DNA of 24,000 bases from Promethearchaeati archaeon (GTDB lineage: Archaea > Asgardarchaeota > Heimdallarchaeia > JABLTI01): NCBI GenBank assembly GCA_013166835.1, contig JABLTI010000029.1, forward strand, positions 5,579 to 29,578, read 5' to 3'. Positions within the stretch are counted from its first letter, which is position 1, and each line of letters starts with the position of its first letter. Positions 1 through 22,310 of the stretch are shown here, in pieces. A model generated the notes under the pieces. That model was not told the origin of the DNA and did not search any database. It saw only the letters and a list, made by a program, of their open reading frames with translations. Both the position numbers and the translations under genes were made by a program.

Positions 1-1379
1 ACGTTGGACCGAATGTTCCAATGCTATCTAGTTTCTCTTATCTTACACTCTTCTGGTTTATGATTACATGTAGCATAGCATTCATGCTTACATTCCTCTT
101 CTTAATTGTCGCCAGAGTAATTACCTTACTTTGGACATTACTCAATAATCGTTTATGGCGTAATCGCTTGAATATTTTTTCATTATCAATAAAACACTTG
201 TCAGATAATCGGGGAATCTATCAAACGACAATTTTGGCAGCATTAATATTTGGACTAGTAATAATACCTGGATTGGCTATGGAGAGCTCCATACCATCAC
301 ATATACAAAATGAAGCAAAACTCTCAATGGGAAATACCAATTTGATTGTAACTGATTGGTTTGATGAACATGATACAATTTTACCGGTAATTGATAGTAT
401 CTCAGGTGTGAAAAACGCCACGGAGGTAAGAGCTTATACAATTATCAATGACAATCAAGGAAGCAGTTATCCCAGACCATTTCATATTAATGTGTTGGGA
501 ATCGAGGAACCAACTGAATTCATAGAAACGATAGATTTTGATCTGTTTGATGAATCAGTATCTACAGAAGACCTTTCATTGTTGAATAACCTATCATTTG
601 CATTATTTGACTCCGAAATTGCTAAGAAATACAATATTGATCCAGGAGAGATATTTAGAACTACATATTACACACGATATGTTTATGAGTTTACAAGTTT
701 GGGATCATTTGATTTCTTTCCATTATCACCTCTACCAAAGAAACAAATTTTCCACAATGATGACGTTCTCTCCATTGTCACAAGTCTTGCTACAGCAAAA
801 GAGCTTATCTATTCTTTAGATTTCTCGACAGACATATATGGAGAATCAATTTTACTAATAAATGTAGAAAATCAGAGTTCAGTACAATATGTCAAAACTC
901 AATTAGAGAATATGACTCTTGACACCATGAATATGGAAGATTACTATAACGAATATTATTCCAAAATTGAATTATTTCCAAAGAATAATCTATTCTTCTT
1001 TTCTTTCGTATCAGCATTCACTTTACTCTTTATAGGCTACTTTACAGGAATGAAAATATTTGATGATAGAATTAGAATAATAGAATCATTTTACCGCATT
1101 GGAGCTGAAAGAGGAAGAATACTAGGATTATTTACAATGGAACTTTTCTTTGTAAACATTCTCCCAATAACCATAGCTATGCTATCTTCAATACCGCTTG
1201 TTAGGTTTTTAGCGGTTTATTATTTGAGTGTCCAAGAATACTATTTCCCATTTACACTCAGTTTGCCTGCATGGCTATTTATCGTAATAATACTGGGTGG
1301 AATAGCATTATCATCAATAGGCTGGTTCTTAGCGATCATACCTGCGCTTTATAAATACAGACCAGTTAAACAGGAGTAG
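1..1379 (+). CDS. ABC transporter permease, FtsX/MacB-like (type VII); possibly 5'-truncated by the window edge
   Basis: The tracked ORF starts at ATG 21, but the same frame is open back to nt 3 (VGPNVP-M) with no stop, so the gene may continue upstream. 'LSIKHLSDNRGIYQTTILAALIFGLVII' looks like the conserved arm plus TM1 of FtsX-type permeases. A hydrophilic loop of about 230 aa follows, then three C-terminal TM helices (FFFSFVSAFTLLFIGYF, ILGLFTMELFFVNILPITIAML, WLFIVIILGGIALSSIGWFLAIIPAL). An extra hydrophobic stretch precedes the arm motif, which hints at a preceding membrane module. The ABC ATPase gene follows after a 5-nt gap. Confidence 0.8.
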   Translation, partial: VGPNVPMLSSFSYLTLFWFMITCSIAFMLTFLFLIVARVITLLWTLLNNRLWRNRLNIFSLSIKHLSDNRGIYQTTILAALIFGLVIIPGLAMESSIPSHIQNEAKLSMGNTNLIVTDWFDEHDTILPVIDSISGVKNATEVRAYTIINDNQGSSYPRPFHINVLGIEEPTEFIETIDFDLFDESVSTEDLSLLNNLSFALFDSEIAKKYNIDPGEIFRTTYYTRYVYEFTSLGSFDFFPLSPLPKKQIFHNDDVLSIVTSLATAKELIYSLDFSTDIYGESILLINVENQSSVQYVKTQLENMTLDTMNMEDYYNEYYSKIELFPKNNLFFFSFVSAFTLLFIGYFTGMKIFDDRIRIIESFYRIGAERGRILGLFTMELFFVNILPITIAMLSSIPLVRFLAVYYLSVQEYYFPFTLSLPAWLFIVIILGGIALSSIGWFLAIIPALYKYRPVKQE

Positions 1380-1384
1380 ATGAA

Positions 1385-3043
1385 ATGATTGACTGTGAAG
1401 ACGTAATAAAAATCTATTCAGATCCGGAAACAAATATTAGAATTGCAGCACTAAGAGGTATTGATTTAAAAATCAATAAAGGTGAAATTATTTCCATAGT
1501 TGGCCCAAGTGGTTCCGGTAAATCTACTTTGATAAAGATACTAGCAGGTATAGAAGCCATTTCAAGTGGGGAAGCAAGAGTAGGGGAATTTGAACTTGAA
1601 AAAATGGGTTTAAAAGATCTACTAAATTATAGACTAAAGTCTGTAGGGTTAGTACATCAATTCCCAGAAAGAACACTATTTCTTACCGGTTCAGTTTGGG
1701 ATAATATGTCTTTCTCCTCAAGCCTATCCTCGAAAAACTTGACACAAAACAAGCAAGAAAACAATGAAATACTAAAAACACTAGGAATTGACCACCTCAG
1801 AAATAGACGAGTGAGTTTGTTATCAGGAGGAGAAATGATAAGAACAGCTATAGCCTGTATGCTAGCTAAAAAAGCTAAACTACTTTTATGTGACGAACCG
1901 ACTGGTCAATTAGATAGTGTGAACACTGAGATTGTTAAAGATACACTTCGACAAATTTCTCAAGATTATGACACCACTGTACTTGTAGTTACCCACGATC
2001 CAAGATTCTTGACAGGGGTAGATAGAACTTGTGAAATCTATAGTGGAAGAGTCAGTTCACTCTATAATGCTGAAGAAAGTGCTCTTGTTAGTGCAGATGA
2101 ATTCCCACTAGAATTTATTGGGCAATTAGATTCATCTCAGAACGTTAGGGTCCCTCGAGAAGTCTACAGTTTATTACAACTACACACAAAAGTAAAGTTC
2201 TCAATTTCTAAAGATTCTGTTGTTGAAATAAAACATCCAGAAGGATTACTGCCGAAAAAACCTGAATTAAAAGAATTAAGAAAACAGAAAAAGCTCATAA
2301 TAGAAGATTTGCCGAAGGACTATTTTGCTAGCAAAGATGTTATCATTAAAGCTTCTAACATCTCAAAAATATATACTTACAAATCTCTTAAAATCCCCGC
2401 AGTTACAAATGTGGATATGCAAATTTGCGATGGTGAGTTAGTGTTTATTATTGGTCCTTCAGGATCAGGTAAAACTACTTTAATCAAAGTAATTACTGGC
2501 ATGGAATCAAGTAGTAGTGGAGAAATTCAGGTTCTTGATGAGGAGTTGCACAAATTAAATGATGCTCATAGAGCGAAGTTTCGCAGGAAAAACCTTGGAA
2601 TAGTTTCTCAATTAGGAGATTTGCATCCAAATATCACTGTCAGAAAGAATCTTTTCCTAAAGAAATTACTATCTGGTGATTTTGTATTTCTAAAGAAGTA
2701 TCCACAAACAGAAATCGATGATATACTAGAAATGTTCCAAATTACTCATAGACAAGAATCATATCCATTAGAGATTTCCGGTGGAGAATTACAAAGAGCA
2801 TCCTTAGCTATAGCAAAATATGGAGAACCAGGAATACTCCTACTAGATGAACCAACAGCAAACATGGATGGCGAACTAGCAGAAATCGTAATGGAACAAT
2901 TATACCAAATTCATCAGCAGCTTGGATCGACTTTGATAATAACTACTCATGACATCAATTTAGTTAGGGATGGCACTAGAGTAATTGAACTAAAAGACGG
3001 GAAAATCAGTAGAGATGGACTCGCTACCTCTGTGGAAGAATGA
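1385..3043 (+). CDS. ABC transporter ATP-binding protein with two fused LolD/MacB-type nucleotide-binding domains
   Basis: NBD1: Walker A GPSGSGKST (aa 40-48), Q-loop VGLVHQ, signature LSGGE (146-150), Walker B LLLCDEP (166-172), H-loop VVTHD. NBD2: Walker A GPSGSGKTT (357-365), Q-loop IVSQ, signature ISGGE (464-468), Walker B LLLDEP (485-490), H-loop ITTHD. AGGAG at 1372-1376 lies 8 nt upstream of the ATG. Confidence 0.9.
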   Translation: MIDCEDVIKIYSDPETNIRIAALRGIDLKINKGEIISIVGPSGSGKSTLIKILAGIEAISSGEARVGEFELEKMGLKDLLNYRLKSVGLVHQFPERTLFLTGSVWDNMSFSSSLSSKNLTQNKQENNEILKTLGIDHLRNRRVSLLSGGEMIRTAIACMLAKKAKLLLCDEPTGQLDSVNTEIVKDTLRQISQDYDTTVLVVTHDPRFLTGVDRTCEIYSGRVSSLYNAEESALVSADEFPLEFIGQLDSSQNVRVPREVYSLLQLHTKVKFSISKDSVVEIKHPEGLLPKKPELKELRKQKKLIIEDLPKDYFASKDVIIKASNISKIYTYKSLKIPAVTNVDMQICDGELVFIIGPSGSGKTTLIKVITGMESSSSGEIQVLDEELHKLNDAHRAKFRRKNLGIVSQLGDLHPNITVRKNLFLKKLLSGDFVFLKKYPQTEIDDILEMFQITHRQESYPLEISGGELQRASLAIAKYGEPGILLLDEPTANMDGELAEIVMEQLYQIHQQLGSTLIITTHDINLVRDGTRVIELKDGKISRDGLATSVEE

Positions 3044-3061
3044 TTAGAAAATAAAAGAAGA

Positions 3062-3095
3062 AATTAGCTCAAAAGAGCTAATTATTGTATTTTTT
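3062..3095. terminator. Perfect 9-bp stem hairpin flanked by T-rich tracts on both strands (bidirectional terminator candidate between convergent genes)
   Basis: AATTAGCTC (3062-3070), loop AAAA, GAGCTAATT (3075-3083), then ATTGTATTTTTT on the + strand. The complement of the upstream flank (agaaaataaaagaagaa) is also T-rich on the - strand. Confidence 0.6.
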
Positions 3096-3222
3096 CTAGA
3101 ATAGAAGTATAGGTAATATTAGTCCTAGTATTGCCAAGATAAATGCAACAAATATTAGAATCATTGGCCATTTCTTGGATTTTGTAATAATCATTGATTC
3201 ATTATTTGTTAAGAATATAATA

Positions 3223-6200
3223 TTACTTTTCTTTCAATAAATCGCTAAGATTACTAACTCCAAAAGGTCCAATCTGTTCTAATTGCGTTGCGAGAATAAA
3301 GAGAGTGTTGAGTGTTATCGTTTCTCTTGGTTTTACTTTGATTTCTCGAGTATTTTTTGTCAAAGAAATATGAGTTAGATTTGGTGAATACGGATAAACG
3401 CTGCTAATAAATTGACCTCTTGAACAAGCAACACCAAAGTAATATTTGTTATCTGCTTTCTTAAATGCAGACCATAAGTTTCCATATAACTTTTCATAAC
3501 CAACTTCAGATTCATGATTCTGCAGTTTGTAAGTCATAGTTTTTCCTTGTTTATCTTGAATGAAATAACGGTCTCTTTCAGAATTTGATGTTTTCAAATC
3601 GGCAGTAGTATGAGCATAGAGATTCCTCGTGGATCCCGACAGATTTGTAAATACTTGTTGACCTAAGACAATAGGAGAATCAGGGAGTGTTAGGAATCGA
3701 TTTTCCACTTGTATGCCCTTTATTGCCGGATGAAATGTTAACACGTTTGATTTGAATCCAATACCTTTCCAATTACCTTCTTCTATTTCATAAGAATCAA
3801 AGGTGATATTGTCAAAGTACTTCTCATCACCAATCCAGAAGTGTTTTGGTTTTACTATGGGTCCGAGTCCACCATAAAAGTGATTAAACCATAAGAATGG
3901 TTTGCTTTCTGGGAAGTTTGTAAGCAAGTAATTATGATCATCATCTGCTGGTGATAAGAAGAAAACATAGCCCTTGAAATCCTTACTTCCTTTGAATTTC
4001 AAGTATCCATTGTTGACTTCTAAAACTTCTTTATTATCAACTAATGATTTTGTTATTGTGACATCCTCTTTCTTATCAAAGAATGCAAAAGCTATAGGTG
4101 TATCATACTTTTTGGTTTTACAATCAAAGGTGATTTTACCACCCACAACATAGCTTTTTGGTGCTTTTATTTTGATTTCTTCTTGCCAAAATCTTCCTTT
4201 GTGAGATTTAATTTTGAAGCTACTCGGTTCTGTTATTTTTTCTTTGAGAGAGATATCGACTTTTCCTTTTAATGTTGTAGTTCCTGAAGCATCAAAAGCC
4301 ACATCTATTGTTTTCTGATTCTTATCAAGAATTACTCCTTGAGCTAGTGTTTCACCTTCAATTTTATTGATGAATCCAAATTGTTTCATATTTTCCGGGA
4401 AATGATAAAATTGCAATTCATTTTCAGGGGAGTAATGAAACTTGTCTTGCCACATTTTCCTAACTGCTTGCCAGGAATCTGTAAAATAGTAATAAGTAAA
4501 TGGTGTTTCATAACTAGTTTTGCCTTTCAACTCAGCTATTTTATAATCGACACTTGGAAATCTTCTGGGTCGGATTTTATCAATTTTATTTAAATCATGG
4601 AGAAATCCAATTGTTCCACTTACGTACTCGGTTGCTCTCCAACCCTCAGAAAAATCTGATGGATCATCTTCGAAAATAGTTGGAACTTCATACATGTTTC
4701 CAGTTTTTATTCCATCCTTTGTTGGAATAATTATATTCTTAACATCAGTTTGTCCAGGCCACCAATAGGAACCTAGTTGTATACCTAGGTCACCGATTGG
4801 TTTATCAGTGAGATTTTCTACCAAATATTTGAAACCGATTGGCTCATTGCTTGTTGGGATAAAGGCCTTTCTTGTTACTTTAATTCCTTTTTTATCCTCT
4901 GATAGTCCAGTACTATGTATCCAAACACCATTAGATTCTTCTTTAATTTCATGTTCCAATTGTAGATTAAAGAATTCACTTCCATCATCATCAAAAGGAT
5001 AGCCTAGAATTATAGCATTACCATTTATACACAATCTTCTAAGTTTGTCAGTGATATAGATTTCATTTGACCAAGGTTGTGGTTTTCTATTGAATTTCAC
5101 TAAGTAATGTTTGTTTTCTATGTAAACAAGCTCCTCAAATTCATATACCACAGATTTGTTTTCGTTGAAGATGACAACAGGTAAGAGTCTCTCTTGTAAT
5201 AATTCATTATCCTTTGTTGTAGCTCTAACCTTAACAAAATCAACAACTGTATCTGTGCTTCCAGTCTCAGCAGCAACCTCAAGTATTGTATCATATTTTG
5301 AAATTTTCACTTCGTGTTGCTTTTTCTTAAAAGTAATGAAATTTGTATCTGTTAATTCAATTTTAATTGCTTTTTCTTCATCAAAGCAATTTATAATTTC
5401 AAGAGGTAATGTAAATTGATGATTTGGAATGGTATTATAATTTACTGGAGCTGTCAAGATCTTAATTGCATGTAATGGTGCTTTCCCTATTCTTATTGGA
5501 AAACTTACTCCATCGCTTTCAATATTAAATGTAATTTGATGTTCACTGTAGTTTTGATGATGTATTTTCATATCAAATTCATTAGTATCATAAGCAAAAC
5601 TAGCTGTAAATTGGAGAATTTTCTCCTCTTTTGGCTTTACAATTATTTCTTGTTTTTCAACTTTTAATTTGATTTTATCAGAAATTTGAGTATTAATTTG
5701 AAACTTCTTTTCAGTAGAGCCATTATTTCTGATTGTCAATGTTATTGGAAATTCCTCAAAACCAATGAATGCTTCAGTATTTGGTACAGTTGCTTTCACA
5801 AATAAATCATCATTCTCAGTTTTCTTATGGAACCCACTAATGCAGCCAATGCTTCTATCTATCCAAACTTCTAGAGAATTTTTCTCATCCATTACAAAAT
5901 CGTATTTGTAGATTGCCATTTTCTCTTCGAATTCTTCATCCGGAATTTGATTAATTACTGGTTTAAAGGAATTATACCATGAATACTTCTCAAACATCTC
6001 TTGGAGAAGTGGATAAACCAGTATTTGAGGAAGATAATTCTCAAGATAACAAGAAGTATTAGGTCGCCACTTGTAACCTTGCTTCTTGTAAAGAGGCATC
6101 GCCTTAAGATTTCCACCCCACGTATGGAGAGAAATTAATGGAGCTTTATGTTTTAGTGCGTGTCTAGTGGATTCTAAGAGAAGAGCTTTTCCAAATTTCT

Positions 6201-6573
6201 GTCCTTGATATGCAGGATCAACCCCTATCAACTGAACATACCAAGCATCAGATAGATTCCATGATCTACTACAGATACTTACTCCCACTATTTTATTCTC
6301 ATCATCAGGGGCATTAATAATGAAACGGCTTGAATGATCAAGACCTTTGAATCTCTTTTCTAAATATTCACCAGTAAATTCGAAATTCCCACCAAAACCA
6401 CCTGGCCAGCTATCGGTATCATTGAAAGTCTTATAGCAACTCGCTAATGCATCGTAGTCTTTTCTTTCCTCACGTAATGTTCTAATCAATTCTGTTTTTT
6501 CATCTTGTAGGAAGATTATTTCTCTGATGTCCATACTGGTCTTATCAGTGCTTTTTTTAGGGTTCATTTCCAT
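3223..6573 (-). CDS. Large GNAT-family N-acetyltransferase fusion protein: N-terminal GNAT domain plus about 930 aa of uncharacterised beta-rich region
   Basis: 1116-aa ORF. Residues about 85-175 carry GNAT motif A, 'WYVQLIGVDPAYQGQKFGKALLLES' (Q-x-x-G-x-G/A acetyl-CoA loop), and 'AMPLYKKQGYKW' (motif B). No N-terminal signal or TM segment. The remainder has no motif I recognise. GGTGG lies directly before the first ATG and 6 nt before the in-frame ATG at 6567, so the start may be 6567. Confidence 0.8.
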   Translation of the reverse strand: MEMNPKKSTDKTSMDIREIIFLQDEKTELIRTLREERKDYDALASCYKTFNDTDSWPGGFGGNFEFTGEYLEKRFKGLDHSSRFIINAPDDENKIVGVSICSRSWNLSDAWYVQLIGVDPAYQGQKFGKALLLESTRHALKHKAPLISLHTWGGNLKAMPLYKKQGYKWRPNTSCYLENYLPQILVYPLLQEMFEKYSWYNSFKPVINQIPDEEFEEKMAIYKYDFVMDEKNSLEVWIDRSIGCISGFHKKTENDDLFVKATVPNTEAFIGFEEFPITLTIRNNGSTEKKFQINTQISDKIKLKVEKQEIIVKPKEEKILQFTASFAYDTNEFDMKIHHQNYSEHQITFNIESDGVSFPIRIGKAPLHAIKILTAPVNYNTIPNHQFTLPLEIINCFDEEKAIKIELTDTNFITFKKKQHEVKISKYDTILEVAAETGSTDTVVDFVKVRATTKDNELLQERLLPVVIFNENKSVVYEFEELVYIENKHYLVKFNRKPQPWSNEIYITDKLRRLCINGNAIILGYPFDDDGSEFFNLQLEHEIKEESNGVWIHSTGLSEDKKGIKVTRKAFIPTSNEPIGFKYLVENLTDKPIGDLGIQLGSYWWPGQTDVKNIIIPTKDGIKTGNMYEVPTIFEDDPSDFSEGWRATEYVSGTIGFLHDLNKIDKIRPRRFPSVDYKIAELKGKTSYETPFTYYYFTDSWQAVRKMWQDKFHYSPENELQFYHFPENMKQFGFINKIEGETLAQGVILDKNQKTIDVAFDASGTTTLKGKVDISLKEKITEPSSFKIKSHKGRFWQEEIKIKAPKSYVVGGKITFDCKTKKYDTPIAFAFFDKKEDVTITKSLVDNKEVLEVNNGYLKFKGSKDFKGYVFFLSPADDDHNYLLTNFPESKPFLWFNHFYGGLGPIVKPKHFWIGDEKYFDNITFDSYEIEEGNWKGIGFKSNVLTFHPAIKGIQVENRFLTLPDSPIVLGQQVFTNLSGSTRNLYAHTTADLKTSNSERDRYFIQDKQGKTMTYKLQNHESEVGYEKLYGNLWSAFKKADNKYYFGVACSRGQFISSVYPYSPNLTHISLTKNTREIKVKPRETITLNTLFILATQLEQIGPFGVSNLSDLLKEK

Positions 6574-6652
6574 CCACCAAAGCGTGATTCTCTCTCAAAA
6601 TTCCCAATGGAAGTTTAGCGAGAACTCATCTTATTTTAGCTTTGGGTTTACT

Positions 6653-7357
6653 CTAGGAAGTTTCTTGTTCTTTTTCAGCGAATATTTTTGGTTCTTGAGC
6701 TATCTCAACGCTTCTATATGCTAGTCTATTAACAAGTATAAGCAACGAGCCTAACATTAGAAAAACAACAACTAAAACTCCTAACGCAAGGAAATAATAA
6801 CCTAAACCTATTGCATCAATATCCAAGAAAGGATAAAGATAACTACCAAAGAATTTCCCATTAATAACTGACCATATTATATAGAGAATCGGATAGATAA
6901 TCCAGAAAGCAAAATAAAGAAATTTGTACTTTACTTTTTTCAAAGAAAAAATCCAATCAATAAGAAAAGCTATTGGGACAAGATAATGAATTACAAGATT
7001 AGTGAAAATACCATATGGTGTTGTTGGATTGTAAAGTGAGCTAAGCATTATTGCATATCCTAAGAATGTAATTGTGATATAGATTGTTATTCCGCCTTTT
7101 AGTGCACCCTCAACTTTCTTTAGCCTATCAGAGTTAAAATGAAAAATGACTGCAAGTGTTAACCATATCGCAACTAACAAATTAGTTTGCATTGTATAAT
7201 ACCTATAGCTTCTGATACCAGCAAGAAAACCTGATAAAGCATCTACTTGAGTTTGCGCTGTTCTCACAAACATCAAAATTAGTACCGACCAAGTAAATAA
7301 TCCAAGTATTAACCTGTAACTAAAGACTAGATTTCTAAAGTATTTCCAATTAAACAT
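6653..7357 (-). CDS. Polytopic membrane protein, possibly Pr6Pr / FAR-17a/AIG1-like family
   Basis: 234 aa with about 6 hydrophobic helices. 'YRYYTMQTNLLVAIW' resembles the YFT-x-QSN signature I remember for Pr6Pr-type membrane proteins. The family call is from memory only. Confidence 0.6.
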   Translation of the reverse strand: MFNWKYFRNLVFSYRLILGLFTWSVLILMFVRTAQTQVDALSGFLAGIRSYRYYTMQTNLLVAIWLTLAVIFHFNSDRLKKVEGALKGGITIYITITFLGYAIMLSSLYNPTTPYGIFTNLVIHYLVPIAFLIDWIFSLKKVKYKFLYFAFWIIYPILYIIWSVINGKFFGSYLYPFLDIDAIGLGYYFLALGVLVVVFLMLGSLLILVNRLAYRSVEIAQEPKIFAEKEQETS

Positions 7358-7479
7358 AGATTCTTCCAGCTATAAATTGCAATGTTCTATTGTTATGATA
7401 TTGTAAATTAAAAAGTATTTTTAGATGGAAAGGATGTTTGACCAGAGTATTAAAATGATAAAAACAAGAAAGATAACTT

Positions 7480-7935
7480 ATGAGTGAAAAGAAATCTATT
7501 AATTGGAAATTAATAATTATACGTGTGACTTATTGGGTTGGAGTAATACTTGATTTTCTCTCAGCTTTAGTGACAACTATCTATATGCTTTCACCAGGAG
7601 ACACGTTTATCAACGATATTTTTGATTACACATCATTAACAGATATTACTTACTCAATACTAGTTTTTGAGACAGCTTTAATGTGGGGTTGGACTGCTTT
7701 ACTCATTTGGGCGGATAGGAAACCGATTGAACGTAGAGGAGTATTACTTCTTACAATAGTTCCAGTTGTAGGAATGATGTTAATATTTAATACAGTAGGA
7801 TTTGTCGGAGGTAATCCGTTCGTTTCTGTATTTATGCTTGTTATACAATCAGTAATTGTAGCTCTTTATATTGCTAGCTTTATATTAGCATCAAAACTTG
7901 CAAAGAAAAATGAGAGTTTCTCTGAAAACTCTTAA
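7480..7935 (+). CDS. Small integral membrane protein (about 4 TM), unknown function
   Basis: 151-aa ORF with four long hydrophobic segments and a charged C-terminal tail (KLAKKNESFSENS). Divergent from 6653-7357. Confidence 0.6.
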   Translation: MSEKKSINWKLIIIRVTYWVGVILDFLSALVTTIYMLSPGDTFINDIFDYTSLTDITYSILVFETALMWGWTALLIWADRKPIERRGVLLLTIVPVVGMMLIFNTVGFVGGNPFVSVFMLVIQSVIVALYIASFILASKLAKKNESFSENS

Positions 7936-7994
7936 TACTTTTTTTCATTTGGAAAATTATTTATTTTAGTGATTCAATAAAAACTTGAGTTATA

Positions 7995-8372
7995 ATGATA
8001 AATGAAGTTCTCATCTATATTGGGTCAGCTATAATAATTGTCTGGGGAATTGCTCATGAAATAGCTACAAAAAGTGTAGTAAAAGGATTCGGAGAAATAT
8101 CAGAAGATAATAAGAAAATAATTACCCTTGAATGGATTGCAGAAGGTATTGCTCTTTGTTTTATAGGCGTTCTAGCTATTTTCGTAACTGCATTTGGTGA
8201 CTATTCAACGCTAACGAACCAACTTGTTTATTGGATTAGTTCTGCTACTATGTTTGGTTTAGGTATACTCACTTTACTTACAGGTGCAAGAACTAAAGAA
8301 ATTCCCTTTAAAATTTGTCCTGCTGTTTTAGCTGTTGTTATTACTTTATTTATGCTTGGTAGTTTGTTGTAA
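7995..8372 (+). CDS. Small integral membrane protein (about 4 TM), unknown function
   Basis: 125-aa ORF that is hydrophobic throughout. Same strand as 7480-7935 and 59 nt downstream of it. A T7 run follows. Confidence 0.55.
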   Translation: MINEVLIYIGSAIIIVWGIAHEIATKSVVKGFGEISEDNKKIITLEWIAEGIALCFIGVLAIFVTAFGDYSTLTNQLVYWISSATMFGLGILTLLTGARTKEIPFKICPAVLAVVITLFMLGSLL

Positions 8373-8386
8373 CAACATCTATTCTA

Positions 8387-8393
8387 TTTTTTT
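8387..8393 (+). terminator. Oligo-T tract (T7) downstream of 7995-8372; archaeal-style terminator candidate
   Basis: TTTTTTT lies 15 nt after the stop codon, and a second T5 run follows. No convincing hairpin. Confidence 0.3.
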
Positions 8394-8397
8394 ATTT

Positions 8398-9444
8398 TTA
8401 GAATCTCCTAGGAGCTCTAGGATAGGATTTATACTTCGTTCGAGGTTCTGTGCTAATCCAATCACCAGATTCATCTAGATGTGAGAGTGATCTCAAGATA
8501 TCAAAGGTTACCCACCTAGTTGCTTGGGGATTTGGAATATAGTCCCACAACCCATATGTTCCTTGTACCTCTTGTAAGTATTTCACCATATTTGCTACTC
8601 TTGGATCTTCTGTTGTCGCACCTATTCTCCAACATAGATTTAGAATTAATGCTAAATCATAGCGTCCATGGAAGGTTAGGAAGCCATGTGCTGGCTCTAT
8701 ACCAATTATCCTTGCTACTTCGAATCCTAGATAGTTTCTATCTTTAGTTTCTCTAGAGAGTAATAAATCAAGCACTCTTTTTGGTACATCTGTGTTTCTT
8801 CTTTTTGGATGATAGGCAAATGCATTCAGAGCACTGGTACTATTTGTTCTACAACCAAATCGCGAATTTGGAAGTTGACGGTAACCAACAGGTTGATAAC
8901 CTATTTTCCCATCTGGAGAGAAAATTGTAGGCCAAGAACCATCCTCTGCTCGATGTTCTATCAGCCACTCATAAGCCTTCTCTGCTCGAGAGTCTTCGGC
9001 AAAACCACTTATAGCTAAGGCAAATAATGGATCAGCTGTTTGTTTTGGTGTTATTGCTGGACCATGGGTGGGATGTATAAAATGTAAAACTCTGCCTGGT
9101 TGTCTTGGCCAGGCTCCATCATCGAATTGATGAGTGAAGAGGTATTCTGCGGCTTTTTGTATTGCTGGATGATCGTTTTGTAACCCCAAATAACCTAATC
9201 TAATCATTGCAAGGGAAGTATTCCTAATTGGACTATCTAGTAATAATCCTAATGATTCACTTGTTGACCATGAACCATCTTTTTGTTGAATAGCTAGTAG
9301 AGCAGTTATCAAAGGATCTTTTTGTTGTTGTCTAATCAATTCCTTGATTTCTTTATCATCAACGTCTTTATGCAAAAGCTCTTTCAAAACCAATAATCGA
9401 AGAGAAGGAGAAGCATCACCTAGTAATAATGGTAACCAAGTCAT
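8398..9444 (-). CDS. QW-repeat alpha/alpha-toroid protein (terpene cyclase / prenyltransferase / squalene-oxidase-repeat fold), function unknown
   Basis: Four matches to the QW motif [KR][AG]xx[FYW][LIV]xxxQxxxGxW: KAAEYLFTHQFDDGAW (aa 97-112), KAYEWLIEHRAEDGSW (156-171, R in place of Q), NMVKYLQEVQGTYGLW (285-300), and a looser LLAIQQKDGSW (49-59). No signal peptide. The start ATG overlaps the upstream gene's stop (ATGA at 9441-9444). GGAGGG lies 6 nt upstream. Confidence 0.75.
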   Translation of the reverse strand: MTWLPLLLGDASPSLRLLVLKELLHKDVDDKEIKELIRQQQKDPLITALLAIQQKDGSWSTSESLGLLLDSPIRNTSLAMIRLGYLGLQNDHPAIQKAAEYLFTHQFDDGAWPRQPGRVLHFIHPTHGPAITPKQTADPLFALAISGFAEDSRAEKAYEWLIEHRAEDGSWPTIFSPDGKIGYQPVGYRQLPNSRFGCRTNSTSALNAFAYHPKRRNTDVPKRVLDLLLSRETKDRNYLGFEVARIIGIEPAHGFLTFHGRYDLALILNLCWRIGATTEDPRVANMVKYLQEVQGTYGLWDYIPNPQATRWVTFDILRSLSHLDESGDWISTEPRTKYKSYPRAPRRF

Positions 9445-12400
9445 AAGTTACCCTCCAAGACTTTTTTGATGTATACTGCTGATGGAGTTTTTCCAAGAGA
9501 TACTTTCTCCGGAGTCTCTGAGGCAACAATTAACCCACCTTCTGGTCCTCCAACTGGACCAAGCTCAATTAACCAATCGCACGCAGCTAAAACATTCGGA
9601 TGATGTTCAACTACTATTACTGTGTTTCCAGCATCGACAAGTCGCTGAAGTATTCCTATTAAGCGTTCAACATCTTCTAAGTGTTGTCCAACTGTAGGCT
9701 CATCGAGGATATATAATGTATGATCTTTCGTTTTCTTACATAGCTCTTTCGCTATCTTCATTCTCTGAGCTTCTCCACCAGACAAGGTGTATCTTGGTTG
9801 TTGCAATACAAGATAACCTAGACCAACGTCAATTGCTGCTTTCAAGTGCCGAGCTATAGTTTCATTCTCATCCTTGAAGAGTCTATAAACTTGGTTGATA
9901 GTTAATTTCAGAAGATCTGGCAAAGAAAATTCTTTTACTTTGACTTCCCACGCCTCTGGTATAAAACCGGTTCCTTTACAGATATCACAACTTGAGTAAA
10001 CAGTAGGTAGGAAACCCATTTCCATTCTTATTCGACCGGTACCCTTGCAAGCGGAGCAACCTCGTTTGTAATGTTTATCCGTAATTCCAAGAATATCAGC
10101 CTCTGCTGTTTCTGTATAGATTTTGATTAGAGGATTTAGTAATCCAAAGAATCTTAGGGGACTGTAGATGTTTCTCTTCGATTGATCAACTAGTAAAGCA
10201 TTCTTTGGTGAACCTTCTATTGATTCATGTTCTCCAGGTTTCATTCGTTCACTATGTATAGAAGTAGTCAATTTCTTTGGAGCAACAACATTTCCAAGAG
10301 TATCTATAATTAATGTGCTTTTTCCACTTCCTGATACGCCACAAACTCCAACTAAAACTCCAAGAGGAATTTTAACATCTATGTTTTGTAGATTATGTTC
10401 CTTAGCACCTTTTATTGTCATCCATTTAGTGGCTTTTCTTCTTGGTTCGGAAATTAGTTTTAGTTGTTCATCTTGATTTGTGTGGTATGGATTTGTTTTC
10501 TTTTTCCCTGATAACCAATTAGATGTTGTAGTATTCATTTTCATAATTTCTTCAATTGAACCTTGTGCAATAATCTCTCCACCAGCAACTCCTGAACCAG
10601 GACCAAGGTCAATTATATGATCTGCTCCGGTTATTATCTCTGGATCATGTTCCACAACAACAACCGAATTGCCATCATTTCGAAGTTCTAGTAGGACATC
10701 TAGAAGATCATTTACTTCTGAGGGATGCAATCCTCGAGTAGGTTCATCAAGGAGAATAGTAAGGGAGGTTAAACCACTTCCAAGAATAGAAGCTAATCGT
10801 AATCGTTCGTATTCACCAGCAGATAAATTATATGTCGGACGATCGGGATTAATATACCCAAGACCAACTTTTATCAGATAATTCAATCTCTTGGTTAACT
10901 TCTCAAGATTTTGCTGCAGTAATTCTACCCCTATAAAATCTGAGGGTTCAATTTTCTTAATTACCTTTGCTAGATTTTTAATGGTCATTTGTCGCAATTG
11001 ATGAATGTTGAAACCTTTTAATTTGAAAGCTAAATATTCTTCTTTTAATTTCTGCCCATTACAAACATCACAAGTGAATTTGTCGCTATAAGTTTCAAAT
11101 AAGTCACCATAACTAAACCAGCTAAATCCACCCCACGCCTGAAAAACTCCCCAAACTCGCTGGTCTCGAACATATTTGATTATTTTTCCTTTGCTTCTTC
11201 CCTCTACTTCGAACTCCCACTTCTCATCTGAGCCATAAAGGAAGATCTGTTTCGCTTCCTCCGGAATTTCATTCCAAGGAGTTTTTTGAGGATCGAAATT
11301 ATATCTCATTGCAATTTCTTTTAACAAGTAATAAGCTGAATTTAGTGGTTTGCAGTAGTAACCATAAGGCCAAAAACCAGGCGAGTACATTGCACCATCA
11401 CAAATCGGTTTCTCAGGATGAATGATTAATTTATCAATATTAGGTGTCCCAATAAATCCTAAGCCTTTACATTTTTCACAACTGGAAATCAAGCTTACTG
11501 GCGAGAAATGAGTTGGTCTCACAAAACTAGCTGTGGATTTGCATTTCGGACAAATCCAATGTTCTTCTCCTCTTCTCATCATGGTTCTACATTCTAGACA
11601 TTCTCGCTCTCCTATGTGAGTCATAAATGTATAAAGATGATCAGCTATCTCACTTACATTTCCAACCGTATACCTCGGATCAATACGCCAAGCACTCCTA
11701 AAAGATCTAAGAATAGCTGTAACTCCTAATCCTGTGATAGAATCTACTGGTGCTTCTGGACCTTCATTCATACTTTGACGTTCATAAATCGATAAACTCT
11801 CGAGAAATCTTCGTCTGGCTTCTAATTCTAAAACATCATTAACTAAACTCGATTTACCTGAACCCGATATACCCGTAACAACTGCAAGTTTGCCTTTCGG
11901 GATATCCACACTGATATTTTTTAGATTGTTTGCTCTTGCTCCTTTAACAGAAATTACATCAGAGTGTTGGAATTTCTTCTCACTCGTAAGAGTTCTAGGA
12001 GTGTATTCTTCTTCTTCCAGAAGTGCTTTACTTGTTAGAGATTTTTTACACTTTAGTAGATCATTTACAGTCCCACTAAAGATTAATTCACCACCAAATG
12101 GTCCTGCTCCCGGGCCAAGATCGATAATCCAATCCGCAGCTCGAATTATATCCGTATTATGTTCGACAATAACTATTGTTGCTCCTGCTCTTACAAGTCT
12201 ATCAAATACAACTAACAAGCCAGAAATATCACTTGGATGTAAACCAGTACTTGGTTCATCTAAAACAATAAGATTTTCAGTAAGATTTCTTCTTCCAAGA
12301 TATTTCGCTAATTTTACTCTTTGAGCTTCTCCCCCACTCAGAGTTGGTGATGCTTGTCCTAGATGTAAATAACCCAGTCCAATATCTATTAGTGCTTTCA

Positions 12401-14435
12401 AAATTGATTCCGCACTTTTTCGATTCTTTTCCGAGAGATATTCACTCTCGAGTATATAGGGAGTAGCCTCTCTAATACTAAGATTATAAAAATCCCCTAT
12501 AGATAATACATCACCATTGAATTCTACATTTGCATCTAGTATTTCTTGTTTAAACCTTAAACCACGACATTTCTCACATGGAAGCCAAATTGGAGCAATG
12601 TAGGGCATTTTTACTTCCATGGCTCCTAAACCTTCACACTCTTCACACTGACCATCTTTCCTATTAAATGTAAAATGAGATTTCGTAAAATTAGTTGCCG
12701 CAGCAAAAATATCTCGAATAATATCTGAGAGCTTTGTATAGGTAGCTGGATTTGATCTTGGATTCCTACCAATTGGACTCTGATCGACTAATACTGGTTT
12801 CTTCTTTCTACCAATAACCTCTTCACAACCTTGAGGTTCCTTTTTCAATAAACTTGCAACTAAGACATCTTTAACTAGAGTGCTTTTTCCAGAACCAGAA
12901 ACTCCAGTTACTGCAGAAATTCTTTGAAGTGGTAATTGAATATCTATCCCCTTCAAATTTCTGAAGATTGCATTTTTTATAGTAAGAAACTTATCGGGTT
13001 GTGGTCGTAATTCAGGTATGACTACTTTATCCCGGAAACTAAAATAACGACCAGTTGGACTATCTTCAGACCACAGATTCTTAGCTGTTCCATGGAAAAC
13101 GATCTCTCCTCCTTCTCTCCCTGCTCCTGGTCCGATATCAATCGCTTGATCTGCTACTGCTGCAGCCATTCGGTCATGTTCAACATACACTACTGGACCT
13201 GCTAATTCCCGGAAAGCTGGTAGAAATTTCATGACATCATTTGGGTGTTGACCAATTGTTGGTTCATCAAGTATGTGAAGCATGTCTTCAAGTCTACTAG
13301 TAAGAATTATTGCAAGTCTTACTCTTTGAGCTTCTCCTCTCGAGAGAGTAGGAGATGACCTATTTAATGAAATATAACCCAAACCAACTCTGTGGAGTGC
13401 ATTTATTCTTCTTGTAATTTCATCCTTTAATCTATCAGCTGTTTTTGGCAGAAAAACAGTCTCAAATAATTTCTTAATTTCACTCACAGATAGTTTCAGA
13501 AGATCAGGTAGCATTAAGCCATTCCATCTCACTGCGACAGCTTCAGGATGAAGCCCTGTAGAATGACATAACTCACAACCTTTTCCCTTACACGCTTCAC
13601 AAGGCATATGGAAATACTTGGGTTCAAGTTCTGTGAACCAGTAATTACAATTAGTGCAAATTCTTGTTTTCGCTAATTTTGTTTCTTCATCTTTTGCGCG
13701 AACAATTATGTAGGAGGATCCTAATTCAAAAACTTGCTGTATAATCTCTCTTATCTGCTTTGTATTCGCTTTCTTTGTGAGTACAGCCAATTTTATTTCG
13801 ATATTATGCTCTTTATTTGGATCTAAAGACTTACCATCCCAATTTTTCTTGTCAATTATTATCGATTCATTATCGAATTTTTCCTCTAACATACTTAGGA
13901 GAGTTTTATGACTTCCTAATGATTGCTGATTAACAGGTGCTAGAATCTCAATTGTATCCGTACTCACTTTATTTCTAACAATGTCTATTATTGCATCCTC
14001 TGAATGAACAGCTAAACCAGAACTGCACTCTGGACAGAAACGAATGCCAAAATTTGCAAATAAAATTCTAAAGAAAGGATGTAAACCTGAAGAAGTTGCT
14101 AACGTTGAGAGTGGATTACGATTTAAGACATTTTGATCTACAGCAACAGCAGGACTAATTCCTGTAATGGTATTTACATTTGCTTTTGGGAGTCTTAATC
14201 GAGTAGAGCGAGGAGTAAAAATATCAAGAAATCTTCTGCGAGCTTCATGATATAAGGTGTCATACACAAGTGAACTTTTTCCAGAACCGGAAATTCCAGT
14301 AACAACCGTTAAACCATCTTGTATTTCTACATCCACGTTTTTCAGATTGTTTTCTTTCGCACCCTCGATTTTGATTTTCATCGAAATCTCTCGACTTTTC
14401 GCATCTCTGAAGTGTTTACCCTTTTTCCTTCTCAC
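9441..14435 (-). CDS. Tandemly duplicated UvrA-like ABC ATPase (excinuclease ABC subunit A paralogue) with four nucleotide-binding domains
   Basis: Walker A motifs: GISGSGKS (aa 47-54), GVSGSGKS (511-518), GISGSGKS (855-862), GVSGSGKS (1366-1373). Signature motifs: LSRGE 364, LSGGE 699, LSAGE 1204, LSGGE 1551. Walker B motifs: ILDEP 388, VLDEP 724, LLDEP 1228, ILDEP 1576. There are multiple CxxC zinc modules. Both halves begin with the UvrA hallmark I-x-[GV]-[AK]-x-x-x-NLKN. The tracked ORF starts at GTG 14435. By homology the likelier start is ATG 14381 (MKIKIEGAKENNLKN). Confidence 0.92.
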   Translation of the reverse strand: MRRKKGKHFRDAKSREISMKIKIEGAKENNLKNVDVEIQDGLTVVTGISGSGKSSLVYDTLYHEARRRFLDIFTPRSTRLRLPKANVNTITGISPAVAVDQNVLNRNPLSTLATSSGLHPFFRILFANFGIRFCPECSSGLAVHSEDAIIDIVRNKVSTDTIEILAPVNQQSLGSHKTLLSMLEEKFDNESIIIDKKNWDGKSLDPNKEHNIEIKLAVLTKKANTKQIREIIQQVFELGSSYIIVRAKDEETKLAKTRICTNCNYWFTELEPKYFHMPCEACKGKGCELCHSTGLHPEAVAVRWNGLMLPDLLKLSVSEIKKLFETVFLPKTADRLKDEITRRINALHRVGLGYISLNRSSPTLSRGEAQRVRLAIILTSRLEDMLHILDEPTIGQHPNDVMKFLPAFRELAGPVVYVEHDRMAAAVADQAIDIGPGAGREGGEIVFHGTAKNLWSEDSPTGRYFSFRDKVVIPELRPQPDKFLTIKNAIFRNLKGIDIQLPLQRISAVTGVSGSGKSTLVKDVLVASLLKKEPQGCEEVIGRKKKPVLVDQSPIGRNPRSNPATYTKLSDIIRDIFAAATNFTKSHFTFNRKDGQCEECEGLGAMEVKMPYIAPIWLPCEKCRGLRFKQEILDANVEFNGDVLSIGDFYNLSIREATPYILESEYLSEKNRKSAESILKALIDIGLGYLHLGQASPTLSGGEAQRVKLAKYLGRRNLTENLIVLDEPSTGLHPSDISGLLVVFDRLVRAGATIVIVEHNTDIIRAADWIIDLGPGAGPFGGELIFSGTVNDLLKCKKSLTSKALLEEEEYTPRTLTSEKKFQHSDVISVKGARANNLKNISVDIPKGKLAVVTGISGSGKSSLVNDVLELEARRRFLESLSIYERQSMNEGPEAPVDSITGLGVTAILRSFRSAWRIDPRYTVGNVSEIADHLYTFMTHIGERECLECRTMMRRGEEHWICPKCKSTASFVRPTHFSPVSLISSCEKCKGLGFIGTPNIDKLIIHPEKPICDGAMYSPGFWPYGYYCKPLNSAYYLLKEIAMRYNFDPQKTPWNEIPEEAKQIFLYGSDEKWEFEVEGRSKGKIIKYVRDQRVWGVFQAWGGFSWFSYGDLFETYSDKFTCDVCNGQKLKEEYLAFKLKGFNIHQLRQMTIKNLAKVIKKIEPSDFIGVELLQQNLEKLTKRLNYLIKVGLGYINPDRPTYNLSAGEYERLRLASILGSGLTSLTILLDEPTRGLHPSEVNDLLDVLLELRNDGNSVVVVEHDPEIITGADHIIDLGPGSGVAGGEIIAQGSIEEIMKMNTTTSNWLSGKKKTNPYHTNQDEQLKLISEPRRKATKWMTIKGAKEHNLQNIDVKIPLGVLVGVCGVSGSGKSTLIIDTLGNVVAPKKLTTSIHSERMKPGEHESIEGSPKNALLVDQSKRNIYSPLRFFGLLNPLIKIYTETAEADILGITDKHYKRGCSACKGTGRIRMEMGFLPTVYSSCDICKGTGFIPEAWEVKVKEFSLPDLLKLTINQVYRLFKDENETIARHLKAAIDVGLGYLVLQQPRYTLSGGEAQRMKIAKELCKKTKDHTLYILDEPTVGQHLEDVERLIGILQRLVDAGNTVIVVEHHPNVLAACDWLIELGPVGGPEGGLIVASETPEKVSLGKTPSAVYIKKVLEGNL
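9451..9456 (-). promoter_or_regulatory. Shine-Dalgarno-like GGAGGG embedded in the 3' end of the UvrA-like gene, serving the downstream toroid gene
   Basis: The minus strand reads GGAGGG-TAACTT-ATGA. The spacing to the ATG at 9444 is 6 nt, and the TGA of the upstream ORF overlaps that ATG. Confidence 0.5.
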
Positions 14436-14566
14436 TATTAATTTATTTTGTAAGCAATGGTTACTTTTATCGTTTTAGTAATCTTGATGATAGGAGATTA
14501 CCGAAAGTAAAGGAAATTTGTAGGAAGAATCTGTTTATCACTTAGAATTTTTTTTAATTGAATAAC

Positions 14567-20548: not shown

Positions 20549-21664
20549 CTAGTGCTGAAGAATTTTCGTTTTACGTTTTTTCAGCATTTTTTCTCTCTTA
20601 CTTTCAAGTAAATCTACAAATGCTTCTAATCTTGTTTGAAATCCCGCTTCTCCTGTATGTTCATCTACTACAAGAGATAAAACTGGCATGCCGCTTTCAC
20701 GACTCACTTGAGGGAAAATACTTCTTGATATGATTTCAGGCATACAAGTGAAAGGATAGAGGTGTATTAATCCGTCCCAGCCTTTCTTCTTATAGAGAAA
20801 AGCATCTCCAAGATTCTCTTGTGTTTCACCACCAACTCTATATGGAACATATTTAACACCATAGGCATTTGCTTTTTGGAAATCCATCTTTTTGAACGGA
20901 TTCAATCTCTGACCAATATCAACAAATCTCCTCAAAGTTACAGGAGTCTTCGTAATTACTCCCAACTCATTTAATCGTTTATAGATATCCAAATTCAGTG
21001 CAGGTTCTAAAACAACATAGATTTCACCATTCACCACAACTTTCAAAGGATTTGCTTTTTTATCCACTTCCACATTTTCAGCAAACATTTTTGTGATAAT
21101 TTTCGATAATTTTCTTATCTTACTCATTTTTCTTGTTGAGACGATTAGCTGGAATGCATCATTAGCGATCCTTTCAGCACTCCCCTTTTCGATTTCAATA
21201 GCTCGATATTTAAACAGTAATTGGTCTGTTAAATCCGTTAAACGATTTTTTACCCATGTTTTTTGTAAAACTCTAATTGTTTGCAATGTATTTAGACCCG
21301 TACTTACGTTCTTCAATACTTGCACAATATCTTTCGTACTTTCATAATCTATTCTTACCCATTTACAATCATAACCCAAATCTTCCAAAATAATCTTTTG
21401 AACTTGCCAATAAAAACGAAAGCGACAATAGCCATGCCCCCCACCCATTCCCAATTCATCAGCTCCACGTTCAAGACTTTCAATAAAAGTACCCAAAGTG
21501 AGTTTGAAAGGTGTACAGACAAATTCTGGAGAATATCTAGATCCAAGTTGAAATGTTTTCTTACTTGGTTTATTTGGAATAACTAAGTCGTATCTTCCTA
21601 AATCATGAAATAATGACACGAAGACATACTTAAGAGACCCGAAGTGTGGGAACGTGAACGGCAT
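20549..21664 (-). CDS. Acyl-CoA dehydratase activase-related protein, 2-hydroxyglutaryl-CoA dehydratase D-component-like domain (COG3581-like)
   Basis: The N-terminus 'LGSRYSPEFVCTPFKLTLGTFIESLERGADELGMGGGHGYCRFRFY' and C-terminus 'LIHLYPFTCMPEIISRS...LSLVVDEHTGEAGFQTRLEAFVDLL' match the family pattern I remember (SPEFACLP...; CGPD...DEHtgeAG..TRlEAFvDml). It overlaps the upstream gene by 35 nt. Confidence 0.75.
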   Translation of the reverse strand: MPFTFPHFGSLKYVFVSLFHDLGRYDLVIPNKPSKKTFQLGSRYSPEFVCTPFKLTLGTFIESLERGADELGMGGGHGYCRFRFYWQVQKIILEDLGYDCKWVRIDYESTKDIVQVLKNVSTGLNTLQTIRVLQKTWVKNRLTDLTDQLLFKYRAIEIEKGSAERIANDAFQLIVSTRKMSKIRKLSKIITKMFAENVEVDKKANPLKVVVNGEIYVVLEPALNLDIYKRLNELGVITKTPVTLRRFVDIGQRLNPFKKMDFQKANAYGVKYVPYRVGGETQENLGDAFLYKKKGWDGLIHLYPFTCMPEIISRSIFPQVSRESGMPVLSLVVDEHTGEAGFQTRLEAFVDLLESKREKMLKKRKTKILQH

Positions 21665-22310
21665 GTTTCTCCTTTCTCCATCTTAACATATCGACAAATG
21701 CTTCAATACGAGTTTTCATCCCTGCTTCTGCAGTTAAATCATCTAAAACTAACTGTAATAGAGGGATGTCTTGTTTTTCTAAAGCAAACCTATTAGCTAA
21801 TTCTCCTGCTAATGAATCAGGACCACAACTAAAGATCATTAAATGAATTATACCATCAACACTTTCATTTTCAAGGAAATACATGATTGTCCCTAAAATC
21901 TCTCGTTCAAATTCAAAGTATAATCGATTTTCCAATTTGTCTAATTGCTTATCAATTAGTTCTCTTGGCATTTGTTCAGAAGTGATGACGTCTGCACCAT
22001 ATGATTGTAATTTCTTTCGAATATCTAAGGAACAAAAACTATCATTTATTACGTAGGTATGACCGACAAGAGCAATTTTTAGCGTTTTCTCATCTTTTAT
22101 TTCATCTGGAGGATCGTTAAGAAGAATAACAGATCGTTCCCACAGATGAAGTGTCTCAAGATCAATGATTAATTTCTTCTTATATTCCTTATCTGCTTTC
22201 AAAGCTTTTCTCATGGCTTTTATAATTCGGAAGGGATTCTTTGTAAAAACAAAACCAACTTTGAGAACTTCCTTGAAAAAATCAAATTTCGTATGACCAT
22301 ACTTTGCCAT
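21630..22310 (-). CDS. Acyl-CoA dehydratase activase-related protein, DUF2229-like, C-terminal portion (frame-broken from 22366-22584)
   Basis: 'LKIALVGHTYVINDSFCSLDIRKKLQSYGADVIT' and 'IIHLMIFSCGPDSLAGEL...LQLVLDDLTAEAGMKTRIEAFVDML' fit the DUF2229/COG3580 pattern. The frame stays open upstream of the ATG to 22382 and encodes plausible protein (ADVLRSLYPDLPPLIAPHFN). Confidence 0.7.
   Translation of the reverse strand: MAKYGHTKFDFFKEVLKVGFVFTKNPFRIIKAMRKALKADKEYKKKLIIDLETLHLWERSVILLNDPPDEIKDEKTLKIALVGHTYVINDSFCSLDIRKKLQSYGADVITSEQMPRELIDKQLDKLENRLYFEFEREILGTIMYFLENESVDGIIHLMIFSCGPDSLAGELANRFALEKQDIPLLQLVLDDLTAEAGMKTRIEAFVDMLRWRKEKHAVHVPTLRVS

Follow-up and report, generated by a model that had tools for sequence, protein, structure and literature searches.

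What work could a UvrA-like ATPase of double length share with a QW-repeat α/α-toroid protein? The question is raised by two overlapping genes of a Promethearchaeati archaeon (Asgardarchaeota; Heimdallarchaeia), which lie on the minus strand of the 24,000-nucleotide stretch of DNA analysed here (contig JABLTI010000029.1, positions 5,579 to 29,578; hereafter the window), whose G+C content is about 34%. The first open reading frame (ORF), at 9441..14435 with a GTG start, encodes a fused double UvrA-family ATPase; the second, at 8398..9444 with an ATG start, encodes a single-domain toroid protein of 348 residues. Here, we report that this pairing is not a matter of chance, that the two proteins co-evolve as judged from their divergence, and that the ATPase reads as a single-chain, asymmetric pseudo-dimer. 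We propose, with a probability of roughly 0.45, that the pair is a two-subunit DNA-surveillance module for bulky adducts or DNA-bound genotoxins, which would operate largely without UvrB and UvrC.

The stop codon of the ATPase gene and the start codon of the toroid gene share the ATGA at 9441-9444 (the junction reads ...tcttGGAGGGtaacttATGActt), and a GGAGGG at 9451-9456 precedes the toroid ATG by 6 nucleotides (nt); together they form a translational-coupling junction at 9441..9456 on the minus strand. An earlier reading of this stretch made from its letters alone (the sequence-only reading) had described a self-contained, translationally coupled two-gene unit with this overlap and this GGAGGG in a window free of uvrB and uvrC, and our analysis supports the description in each of these respects. 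The boundaries that it gave agree with the ORF ends: 25 nt separate the toroid stop from the end of the convergent ORF at 7995..8372 (plus strand), and 161 nt separate the GTG from the start of a divergent prolyl-oligopeptidase ORF at 14597. Its figures of 1664 residues and 161 nt, however, hold only for the longest ORF, which has 1664 codons. Alignments of the ATPase homologues begin only at residue 15-21 of the window protein, and a TATA-like element, aaaataaattaata (14436..14449, minus strand, recognized from its letters only), abuts the GTG about 60 nt upstream of the ATG at 14381. For these two reasons the true start is probably this ATG (M19), which would give a protein of about 1646 residues and a divergent spacer of about 215 nt; the element itself is a possible archaeal promoter of the pair. 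A 7-bp stem-loop, GGTAAC-TTATGACTT-GGTTACC (9452..9431, minus strand), lies over the toroid ATG. We rejected it as a conserved feature because, across 66 loci, structure at the junction does not exceed that in the remainder of the two genes (mean z 0.05), and it is probably incidental.

Stop/start overlaps of 4 nt are frequent in operons, so a lone one proves little; here, it amounts to more than chance because it is conserved across loci. The toroid family comprises 797 close relatives, and a scan of one genome per species found a relative in 239 genomes, of which the best 80 loci were examined; 76 of these extend far enough upstream to be tested. In 75 of the 76, the toroid gene is preceded by a UvrA-like gene on its own strand, and the two overlap by exactly 4 nt in 56 (41 of 45 archaeal and 15 of 31 bacterial loci). 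Elsewhere the ATPase gene abuts the toroid start (six loci) or is separated from it by gaps of 11-522 nt (nine loci) or 1-2.8 kb (three loci). Locus L037 has a computed overlap of 61 nt; its toroid start is also ATGAC, and an ORF-based call puts the ATPase stop at the usual 4-nt overlap. The one remaining locus, L032 on the Chloroflexia contig CAVOYE010000005, has a toroid gene at about 7998..9026 whose flanks carry no UvrA-like gene out to 8 kb in either direction. The junction follows the same consensus, GGAGG-N6-7-[AGT]TGAC, in archaea and in bacteria. The archaeal hosts are Heimdall-, Loki/Prometh-, Thor-, Hermod- and Hodarchaeota, Bathyarchaeia and Theionarchaea, and the bacterial hosts of this main clade are Anaerolineae, other Chloroflexota and one Zixibacterium. 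When the neighbouring ORFs were clustered, the two genes of the pair were present in 78 and 74 loci, and every other cluster in 11 or fewer. Adjacency across genomes, which the sequence-only reading had named as a check, is thus borne out in two domains of life, and the pairing is not due to chance.

In one case the junction is present although the ATPase gene is short. On the Bathyarchaeota chromosome CP070784 (locus L001, 8334..11035), the ATPase gene has only 556 codons, which correspond to about residues 1100-1661 of the window protein, with 52% identity, and its end shares the usual 4 nt with an intact toroid gene; upstream lies an unrelated ABC exporter on the opposite strand. Other Bathyarchaeia carry a full-length ATPase gene. 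An exhaustive profile search gave no reliable Rosetta-stone fusion of ATPase and toroid. Two metagenomic candidates were set aside: in P0122 (378 residues) a piece of the insertion domain runs into the toroid at its residue 70, apparently through a deletion or misassembly, and P0255 (747 residues) is a mis-framed ORF across both genes of a high-GC genome. An apparently split ATPase in L093 (989 + 564 residues) was likewise rejected as a frameshift, because its first piece ends out of frame inside the insertion domain.

The exhaustive profile search also uncovered a divergent toroid clade in Actinomycetota, with cultured members in Actinopolymorpha pittospori, A. cephalotaxi, Kribbella antiqua and Microlunatus speluncae. 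A UvrA-like gene encoding 1551-1583 residues lies directly before the toroid gene in these bacteria, with a 4-nt overlap at two of three loci and a 2-nt gap at the third; twenty additional loci from metagenomes fit this pattern. Relative to the window proteins, identity is down to 40-42% in the ATPase and 36% in the toroid, and the ATPase retains the same asymmetric architecture. Across 47 loci and the window, pairwise identity in the ATPase tracks pairwise identity in the toroid with r = 0.93, a value reached by none of 2000 Mantel permutations, and the column identities are nearly equal (0.65 for the toroid and 0.67 for the ATPase); by these sequence measures, the two proteins co-evolve. Identity between archaea and bacteria averages 54-55%, with a maximum of 67%, and within archaea it is 55-57%. 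Since the cross-domain values are about the same as those within archaea, the pair has moved between domains as a unit.

The UvrA linkage is specific to this toroid clade. The nearest sister family (1233 hits in the same phyla, among them Heimdallarchaeota and Anaerolineae; about 335 residues) has no adjoining UvrA-like gene at the three loci examined. At all three (L090, 7001..8017; L091, 7001..8005; L092, 7001..7993) a phosphatase-type gene adjoins the toroid gene, the types being His_Phos_1, 2-phosphosulfolactate phosphatase and LMW phosphatase. A Metallophos gene that seemed to be shared by UvrA-linked and sister toroids was rejected as a link because the two Metallophos proteins are unrelated.

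On the ATPase, the NCBIfam uvra model (TIGR00630) scores 1398 bits against a cut-off of 729.8, and the PRK00349 / NF001503 models score 1338 bits against 1147; as these scores sum over two tandem modules, they show family-level homology rather than equivalence. Among UvrA chains in the PDB, class I matches best, at E ~1e-174 (3pih), and the class II chains match more weakly (2vf7 at 1e-127; Ecm16, 7sh1, at 1e-121). The chain carries four full sets of Walker A, signature, Walker B and H-loop motifs. The signature motifs read, in order, LSRGE, LSGGE, LSAGE and LSGGE; the LSRGE and LSAGE of the first nucleotide-binding domain (NBD-I) of each module are kept out to Actinomycetota, and the Walker A lysines are near-invariant across the family.

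Module 1 (residues 19-815, 11991..14381) and module 2 (residues 816-1664, 9444..11990), both on the minus strand, were delimited from CxxC spacing and from alignment to solved UvrA, for module 1 to residues 68-269 of the T. maritima protein. They are 32% identical over about 790 residues, and both contain Zn module 3. Module 1 also retains Zn module 1 and the sole UvrB-binding-like domain (residues 134-262, 13650..14036, minus strand), which was assigned from a Pfam UvrA_inter match at residues 145-248 (26.8 bits; cut-off 23.3) and the flanking cysteines CPEC134 and CTNC260. In this module the insertion domain has been deleted, which brings the Zn-module-2 cysteines, C279 and C287, to within 8 residues of each other. 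Module 2 has lost the opposite part: C946 and C962 stand 16 residues apart where the UvrB-binding domain is missing, and the insertion (DNA-binding) domain is kept as the sole copy (residues 986-1125, 11061..11480, minus strand; Pfam UvrA_DNA-bind at residues 1001-1082, 31.9 bits, cut-off 23.2; flanks CEKC986 and CDVC1122). Because the two modules have lost complementary domains, the chain is asymmetric. The complementary loss is conserved in the Actinomycetota orthologues, and orthologue lengths span 1551-1685 residues. On these motif and domain assignments, the ATPase is a single-chain, asymmetric pseudo-dimer with four intact ATP sites. The insertion domain has a column identity of 0.64 and a highly conserved start, while no other folded part of the ATPase is as poorly conserved as the UvrB-binding-like domain (0.49 against 0.67 overall). 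The sequence-only reading took the latter domain to be retained, which holds for module 1 and not for module 2, and pointed to it as a place to look for an interface with the toroid. This idea is weakened, since the low conservation argues against the domain as a conserved interface.

The 348-residue protein is the QW-repeat α/α toroid that it had been taken for. Pfam SQHop_cyclase_C (42.3 bits; cut-off 26.1) and SQHop_cyclase_N (27.5 bits; cut-off 26.2) both match, and the family profile matches residues 496-594 of squalene-hopene cyclase (SHC) at E = 6.8e-24. AlphaFold2 (AF2), run on a 44-sequence alignment, predicts a series of helical hairpins with a pLDDT of 90.2 and a pTM of 0.91. Foldseek returned only generic α/α toroids (C4Adg/TED, SHC, drimenyl-PP synthase, MstE and MmpH) at TM-scores of 0.3-0.46, and no viral structural analogue. 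The curated cyclase families score far below cut-off (TIGR01787, 37.9 against 322.7; TIGR01507, 28.9 against 431), and Pfam Prenyltrans (PF00432) does not match the window toroid. Terpene-cyclase catalysis was rejected because DxDD is not conserved; it is found in six of the 44 sequences and is absent from the consensus. A thioester mechanism was considered for the G-C-x-x-N motif, which resembles the G-C-G-E-Q of thioester proteins, and was also rejected: CGEQ occurs in none of the 44 sequences, and the Asn is replaced by Thr in Actinomycetota. No prenyltransferase α-subunit gene is conserved among the neighbours of the toroid.

What marks out the UvrA-linked toroids is a set of residues and two added segments. 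A three-clade alignment shows that the two clades linked to UvrA have Y188-R189, G197-C198-R199, T203, D263, D280, R282 and D315 in common, whereas the sister family does not have them; the motif from Y188 to T203 (8836..8883, minus strand) lies at the N-terminal mouth of an inner helix, and the invariant Cys198 and His212 sit at opposite ends of one helix. In the same alignment a loop at residues 240-257 (8674..8727, minus strand; R245, G248, E250, G254 and T257; pLDDT ~59) is inserted in the UvrA-linked toroids only and gapped in the sister family. The C-terminal tail, residues 325-348 (8401..8472, minus strand; D-W329 ... EPRT ... Y-P ... R-R347-F/Y-COOH; pLDDT 60-78), ends in R-R-[F/Y] in both UvrA-linked clades and is absent from the sister family; its pLDDT suggests a flexible docking or DNA-contact element. 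From the order of the helices, without coordinates, we infer that the conserved polar residues at inner-helix N-termini and in QW loops would gather on one face of the barrel. In α/α toroids this face is the customary active-site side.

The genes around the pair differ between lineages. AlkZ-like glycosylases are neighbours in Thorarchaeota and Anaerolineae, an AlkD-like DNA_alkylation enzyme is also nearby in Thorarchaeota, and Fpg and DinB_2 proteins occur near the pair in Asgard loci. In Loki/Hermodarchaeota a same-strand cluster comprises, in order, a small methyltransferase, a class-II-like UvrA of about 835 residues without a UvrB-binding domain, the double UvrA, the toroid and a glyoxalase/bleomycin-resistance-fold protein, so that three UvrA modules stand in a row. 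The class-II-like UvrA lies directly before the pair in ten loci of Loki/Hermodarchaeota and unclassified archaea (L008, cluster at 499..9041; L039, L041, L042, L051, L055, L075, L080, L081 and L084), and the glyoxalase/bleomycin-resistance-fold gene (about 137 residues) follows the toroid immediately in nine Loki/Hermod loci, L069 and L079 among them. In Actinomycetota, an APH-family phosphotransferase gene directly precedes the ATPase in four loci (L088, 4258..5334; L093, 2687..4347; L108, 892..1959; L111, 3064..4275), L087 has a 45-codon APH remnant with the same C-terminal peptide, and a DinB_2 gene is inserted in the operon of L093. Several loci carry a gene for an esterase or a HAD hydrolase downstream of the toroid (L089, 11070..11729; L110, 1124..1840; L113, 566..1222). 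Fifty conserved nucleotides upstream of the operons in L087 and L088 were dropped as a regulatory element, as they are the 3' end of the APH-family gene, and no LexA box (SOS) or PafBC (RecA-NDp) motif was found upstream of three actinobacterial operons. The pair was not found on viral contigs or plasmids.

Within the window itself, a DinB_2-superfamily protein is encoded at 22670..23209 (minus strand), about 8 kb from the cassette; another lies near the pair in the Thorarchaeote locus L005 (1145..1723). The minus-strand ORF at 3223..6573 encodes 1116 residues, of which only a GNAT acetyltransferase domain (residues 75-168) was recognized, the remaining ~950 residues having no Pfam or PADLOC match; nor is there any such match for three short ORFs that separate this gene from the cassette (6653..7357, 7480..7935 and 7995..8372). 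Two overlapping minus-strand ORFs at 20549..22310 (371 and 226 residues) both match HGD-D and DUF2229 (CoA-enzyme activase) and may be one split or frameshifted gene. On the plus strand at 21..3043, an FtsX-type permease is followed after 5 nt by a 552-residue protein with two LolD/MacB-type ABC cassettes; this is an unrelated transporter and no relative of UvrA.

These observations can be combined into a model of how the pair may act. The ATPase, as a UvrA dimer in one chain, would bind duplex DNA and probe it for distortions using ATP at its four sites, an expectation that comes from UvrA homology. Having one UvrB-binding-like domain and one insertion domain, and thus a single copy of each accessory domain, the chain could engage one partner. 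The toroid is produced in step with the ATPase through the stop/start coupling and is probably seated on it by means of the clade-specific loop and the C-terminal tail. The mouth of its barrel, which would be lined by invariant Tyr-Arg, Cys-Arg, Arg, Asp and Trp residues, may bind or chemically process the adduct or ligand after the ATPase has located or dislodged the target. That the ATPase could find or dislodge a lesion or ligand is suggested both by UvrA homology and by analogy with Ecm16, a class IIa UvrA that protects against a DNA bis-intercalator in a manner that needs its ATPase and not UvrA, UvrB, UvrC or UvrD (PMC9328131). The theme of adducts and genotoxins is suggested by the AlkZ, AlkD-like, glyoxalase/bleomycin-resistance-fold, DinB_2, APH-kinase and esterase neighbours. 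These repair and detoxification genes lend indirect support to the sequence-only reading, which had proposed the handling of a DNA-bound ligand, although none of them extends beyond particular lineages.

Several points weigh against the surveillance model. The thematic neighbours are confined to lineages (11 loci or fewer each), and because each association is limited to related genomes they are hints and not proof. The complex of ATPase and toroid is one that we infer, and the retained UvrB-binding-like domain may allow a hand-over to UvrB; that domain is also poorly conserved (0.49), which makes it a doubtful docking site. The toroid has no recognizable catalytic motif, as DxDD is sporadic and CGEQ absent, and its predicted fold finds only generic matches (TM-score 0.3-0.46). 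Finally, L032 is the sole testable genome that has the toroid without a nearby UvrA-like gene. A bolder form of the model would have the toroid, delivered by the asymmetric UvrA, itself remove or capture the adduct or intercalated natural product, as an excision-independent replacement of UvrB and UvrC in Asgard archaea, Bathyarchaeia, Chloroflexota and Actinomycetota; for this we see only a slim chance.

The alternative that fares best, although we regard it as unlikely, is a specialized front end of nucleotide excision repair, in which the fused UvrA recruits UvrB, UvrC makes the cut and the toroid tunes the lesion specificity. The UvrB-binding-like domain speaks to both sides of this question: UvrA_inter is kept in every clade examined, but it is the least conserved folded region, and a chain with one docking domain does not fit the symmetric loading of UvrA2-UvrB2. 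Similarly, the modules are nearer to class I UvrA (3pih) than to class II (2vf7, 7sh1), but the Loki loci add a class-II-like UvrA of the type that lacks a UvrB-binding domain. Asgard archaea generally carry UvrABC according to a review (PMC12993045), whereas no uvrB or uvrC adjoins the pair in the window or in about 110 related loci.

It is also conceivable, with a somewhat lower likelihood, that the toroid is a structural, assembly or regulatory subunit, such as a chaperone or an ATPase brake, that has no ligand or catalytic role. An obligate partner of this kind would fit the translational coupling and the equal rates (0.65 against 0.67), and the conserved N-terminal 20 residues and C-terminal tail of the toroid resemble protein-protein contacts. 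While the lack of a catalytic motif agrees with such a role, the invariant polar residues do not: Y188, R189, C198, R199, R245, D263, D280, R282 and D315 stand at helix N-termini and in post-QW loops, predicted to share one barrel face. Neither does the Bathyarchaeon, where an intact toroid accompanies no more than the final 556 residues of the ATPase.

A defence system against phages or plasmids, in which the UvrA-like ABC ATPase would be the sensor and the toroid the effector, is improbable. The ATPase matches the PADLOC mad3 model of the MADS system (8.5e-116), and the patchy distribution and the transfer between archaea and bacteria would be in keeping with defence. The mad3 match, however, reflects general UvrA homology. 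Only the ATPase matches the mad3 and mad8 models, no other MADS gene is present, and neither the toroid nor four other window ORFs that were scanned matched any PADLOC model. Both proteins are unusually conserved for defence genes, and the pair has no viral-contig or plasmid copy and the toroid no viral structural analogue. Its neighbours are repair, detoxification and housekeeping genes instead of defence islands, so the defence role that the sequence-only reading had offered as an option is not supported. That the adjacency is meaningless, the toroid being an enzyme for isoprenoids or terpenoids whose gene only happens to be co-transcribed with one for DNA repair, is very unlikely and the least credible reading of all, for although the toroid belongs by sequence to the squalene-cyclase/prenyltransferase repeat superfamily, the pairing holds in 75 of 76 loci, in two domains and down to 36% identity, the partners co-evolve (r = 0.93), the single 348-residue domain lacks DxDD and reaches 37.9 against a cut-off of 322.7, and no isoprenoid genes occur near the pair in the window or the clustered loci.

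How does the pair compare with known systems? The sequence-only reading knew of no described pairing of a UvrA with a toroid, and we found no publication either, in literature on UvrA together with the toroid or its fold or Asgard archaea, with subscription journals mostly outside coverage. On the toroid side, the thioester domain (TED) of complement C3/C4 and the α2-macroglobulins provides the top Foldseek match (C4Adg) and shares G-C-x-x-N at a helix N-terminus; the differences are that CGEQ is found in 0 of 44 sequences, that the TM-score is only about 0.3 and that the Asn becomes Thr in the Actinomycetota clade. Squalene-hopene cyclase, other class II terpene cyclases and the prenyltransferase β-subunit have in common with the window toroid the QW-type repeats and the toroid of helical hairpins, and SHC residues 496-594 are its best sequence match of solved structure. 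Nevertheless, a class II terpene cyclase has about 630 residues, two domains and DxDD, whereas the window toroid is a single 348-residue domain without a conserved DxDD. It is cytosolic, has its own invariant residues, loop and tail, and has a UvrA-family ATPase as its genomic partner. The MADS defence system differs in that only the ATPase matches mad models and the other mad genes are absent.

On the ATPase side, its architecture or its score places the protein outside the definitions of class I, class IIa and chlamydial long UvrA. The Chlamydia-type long UvrA (NF001885 / PRK00635, about 1800 residues) serves ordinary UvrABC repair, and we know of no toroid partner for it. It is likewise internally duplicated and about double in length, but the window protein scores 877 bits against a cut-off of 3054 and is therefore not a member of NF001885; the duplication is probably independent. 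Class I UvrA shares with each module the tandem ABC cassettes, the UvrA-type zinc modules and the intact ATPase motifs, and the window chain as a whole has one UvrB-binding-type and one insertion domain. There are, however, distinguishable differences. Class I proteins are homodimers of chains of about 940 residues with both accessory domains in each protomer, whereas the window protein is one chain of about 1650 residues whose modules keep one each; its NBD-I signatures are LSRGE and LSAGE; and ATPases of its type are coupled to a toroid and were never seen beside uvrB or uvrC in the loci examined. Since it is in effect a UvrA dimer made by nature as one chain, and has each accessory domain only once, it should be useful for dissecting damage sensing. 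The module is present in at least 239 species genomes of two domains, among them close relatives of the ancestor of eukaryotes and soil actinomycetes that are in culture, so that genetic testing is feasible now.

The class IIa proteins (Ecm16, DrrC and Deinococcus UvrA2) are, to our knowledge, UvrB-independent paralogues without a known mechanism or partner. Like the window protein, they are UvrA-family ATPases outside the canonical pathway, and module 2 also has no UvrB-binding domain. They are homodimers of about 810-920 residues without a dedicated partner gene, whereas the window protein is fused and its toroid neighbour obligate; they lack Zn module 1 and the UvrB-binding domain, both of which module 1 keeps; and the window protein is closer in sequence to class I. 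Set beside class IIa, the pair would give the UvrA paralogues their first dedicated partner, one of unexpected fold, and with it a handle on the step that follows recognition; it may also be an unrecognized determinant of genotoxin resistance that is relevant to resistance-guided genome mining.

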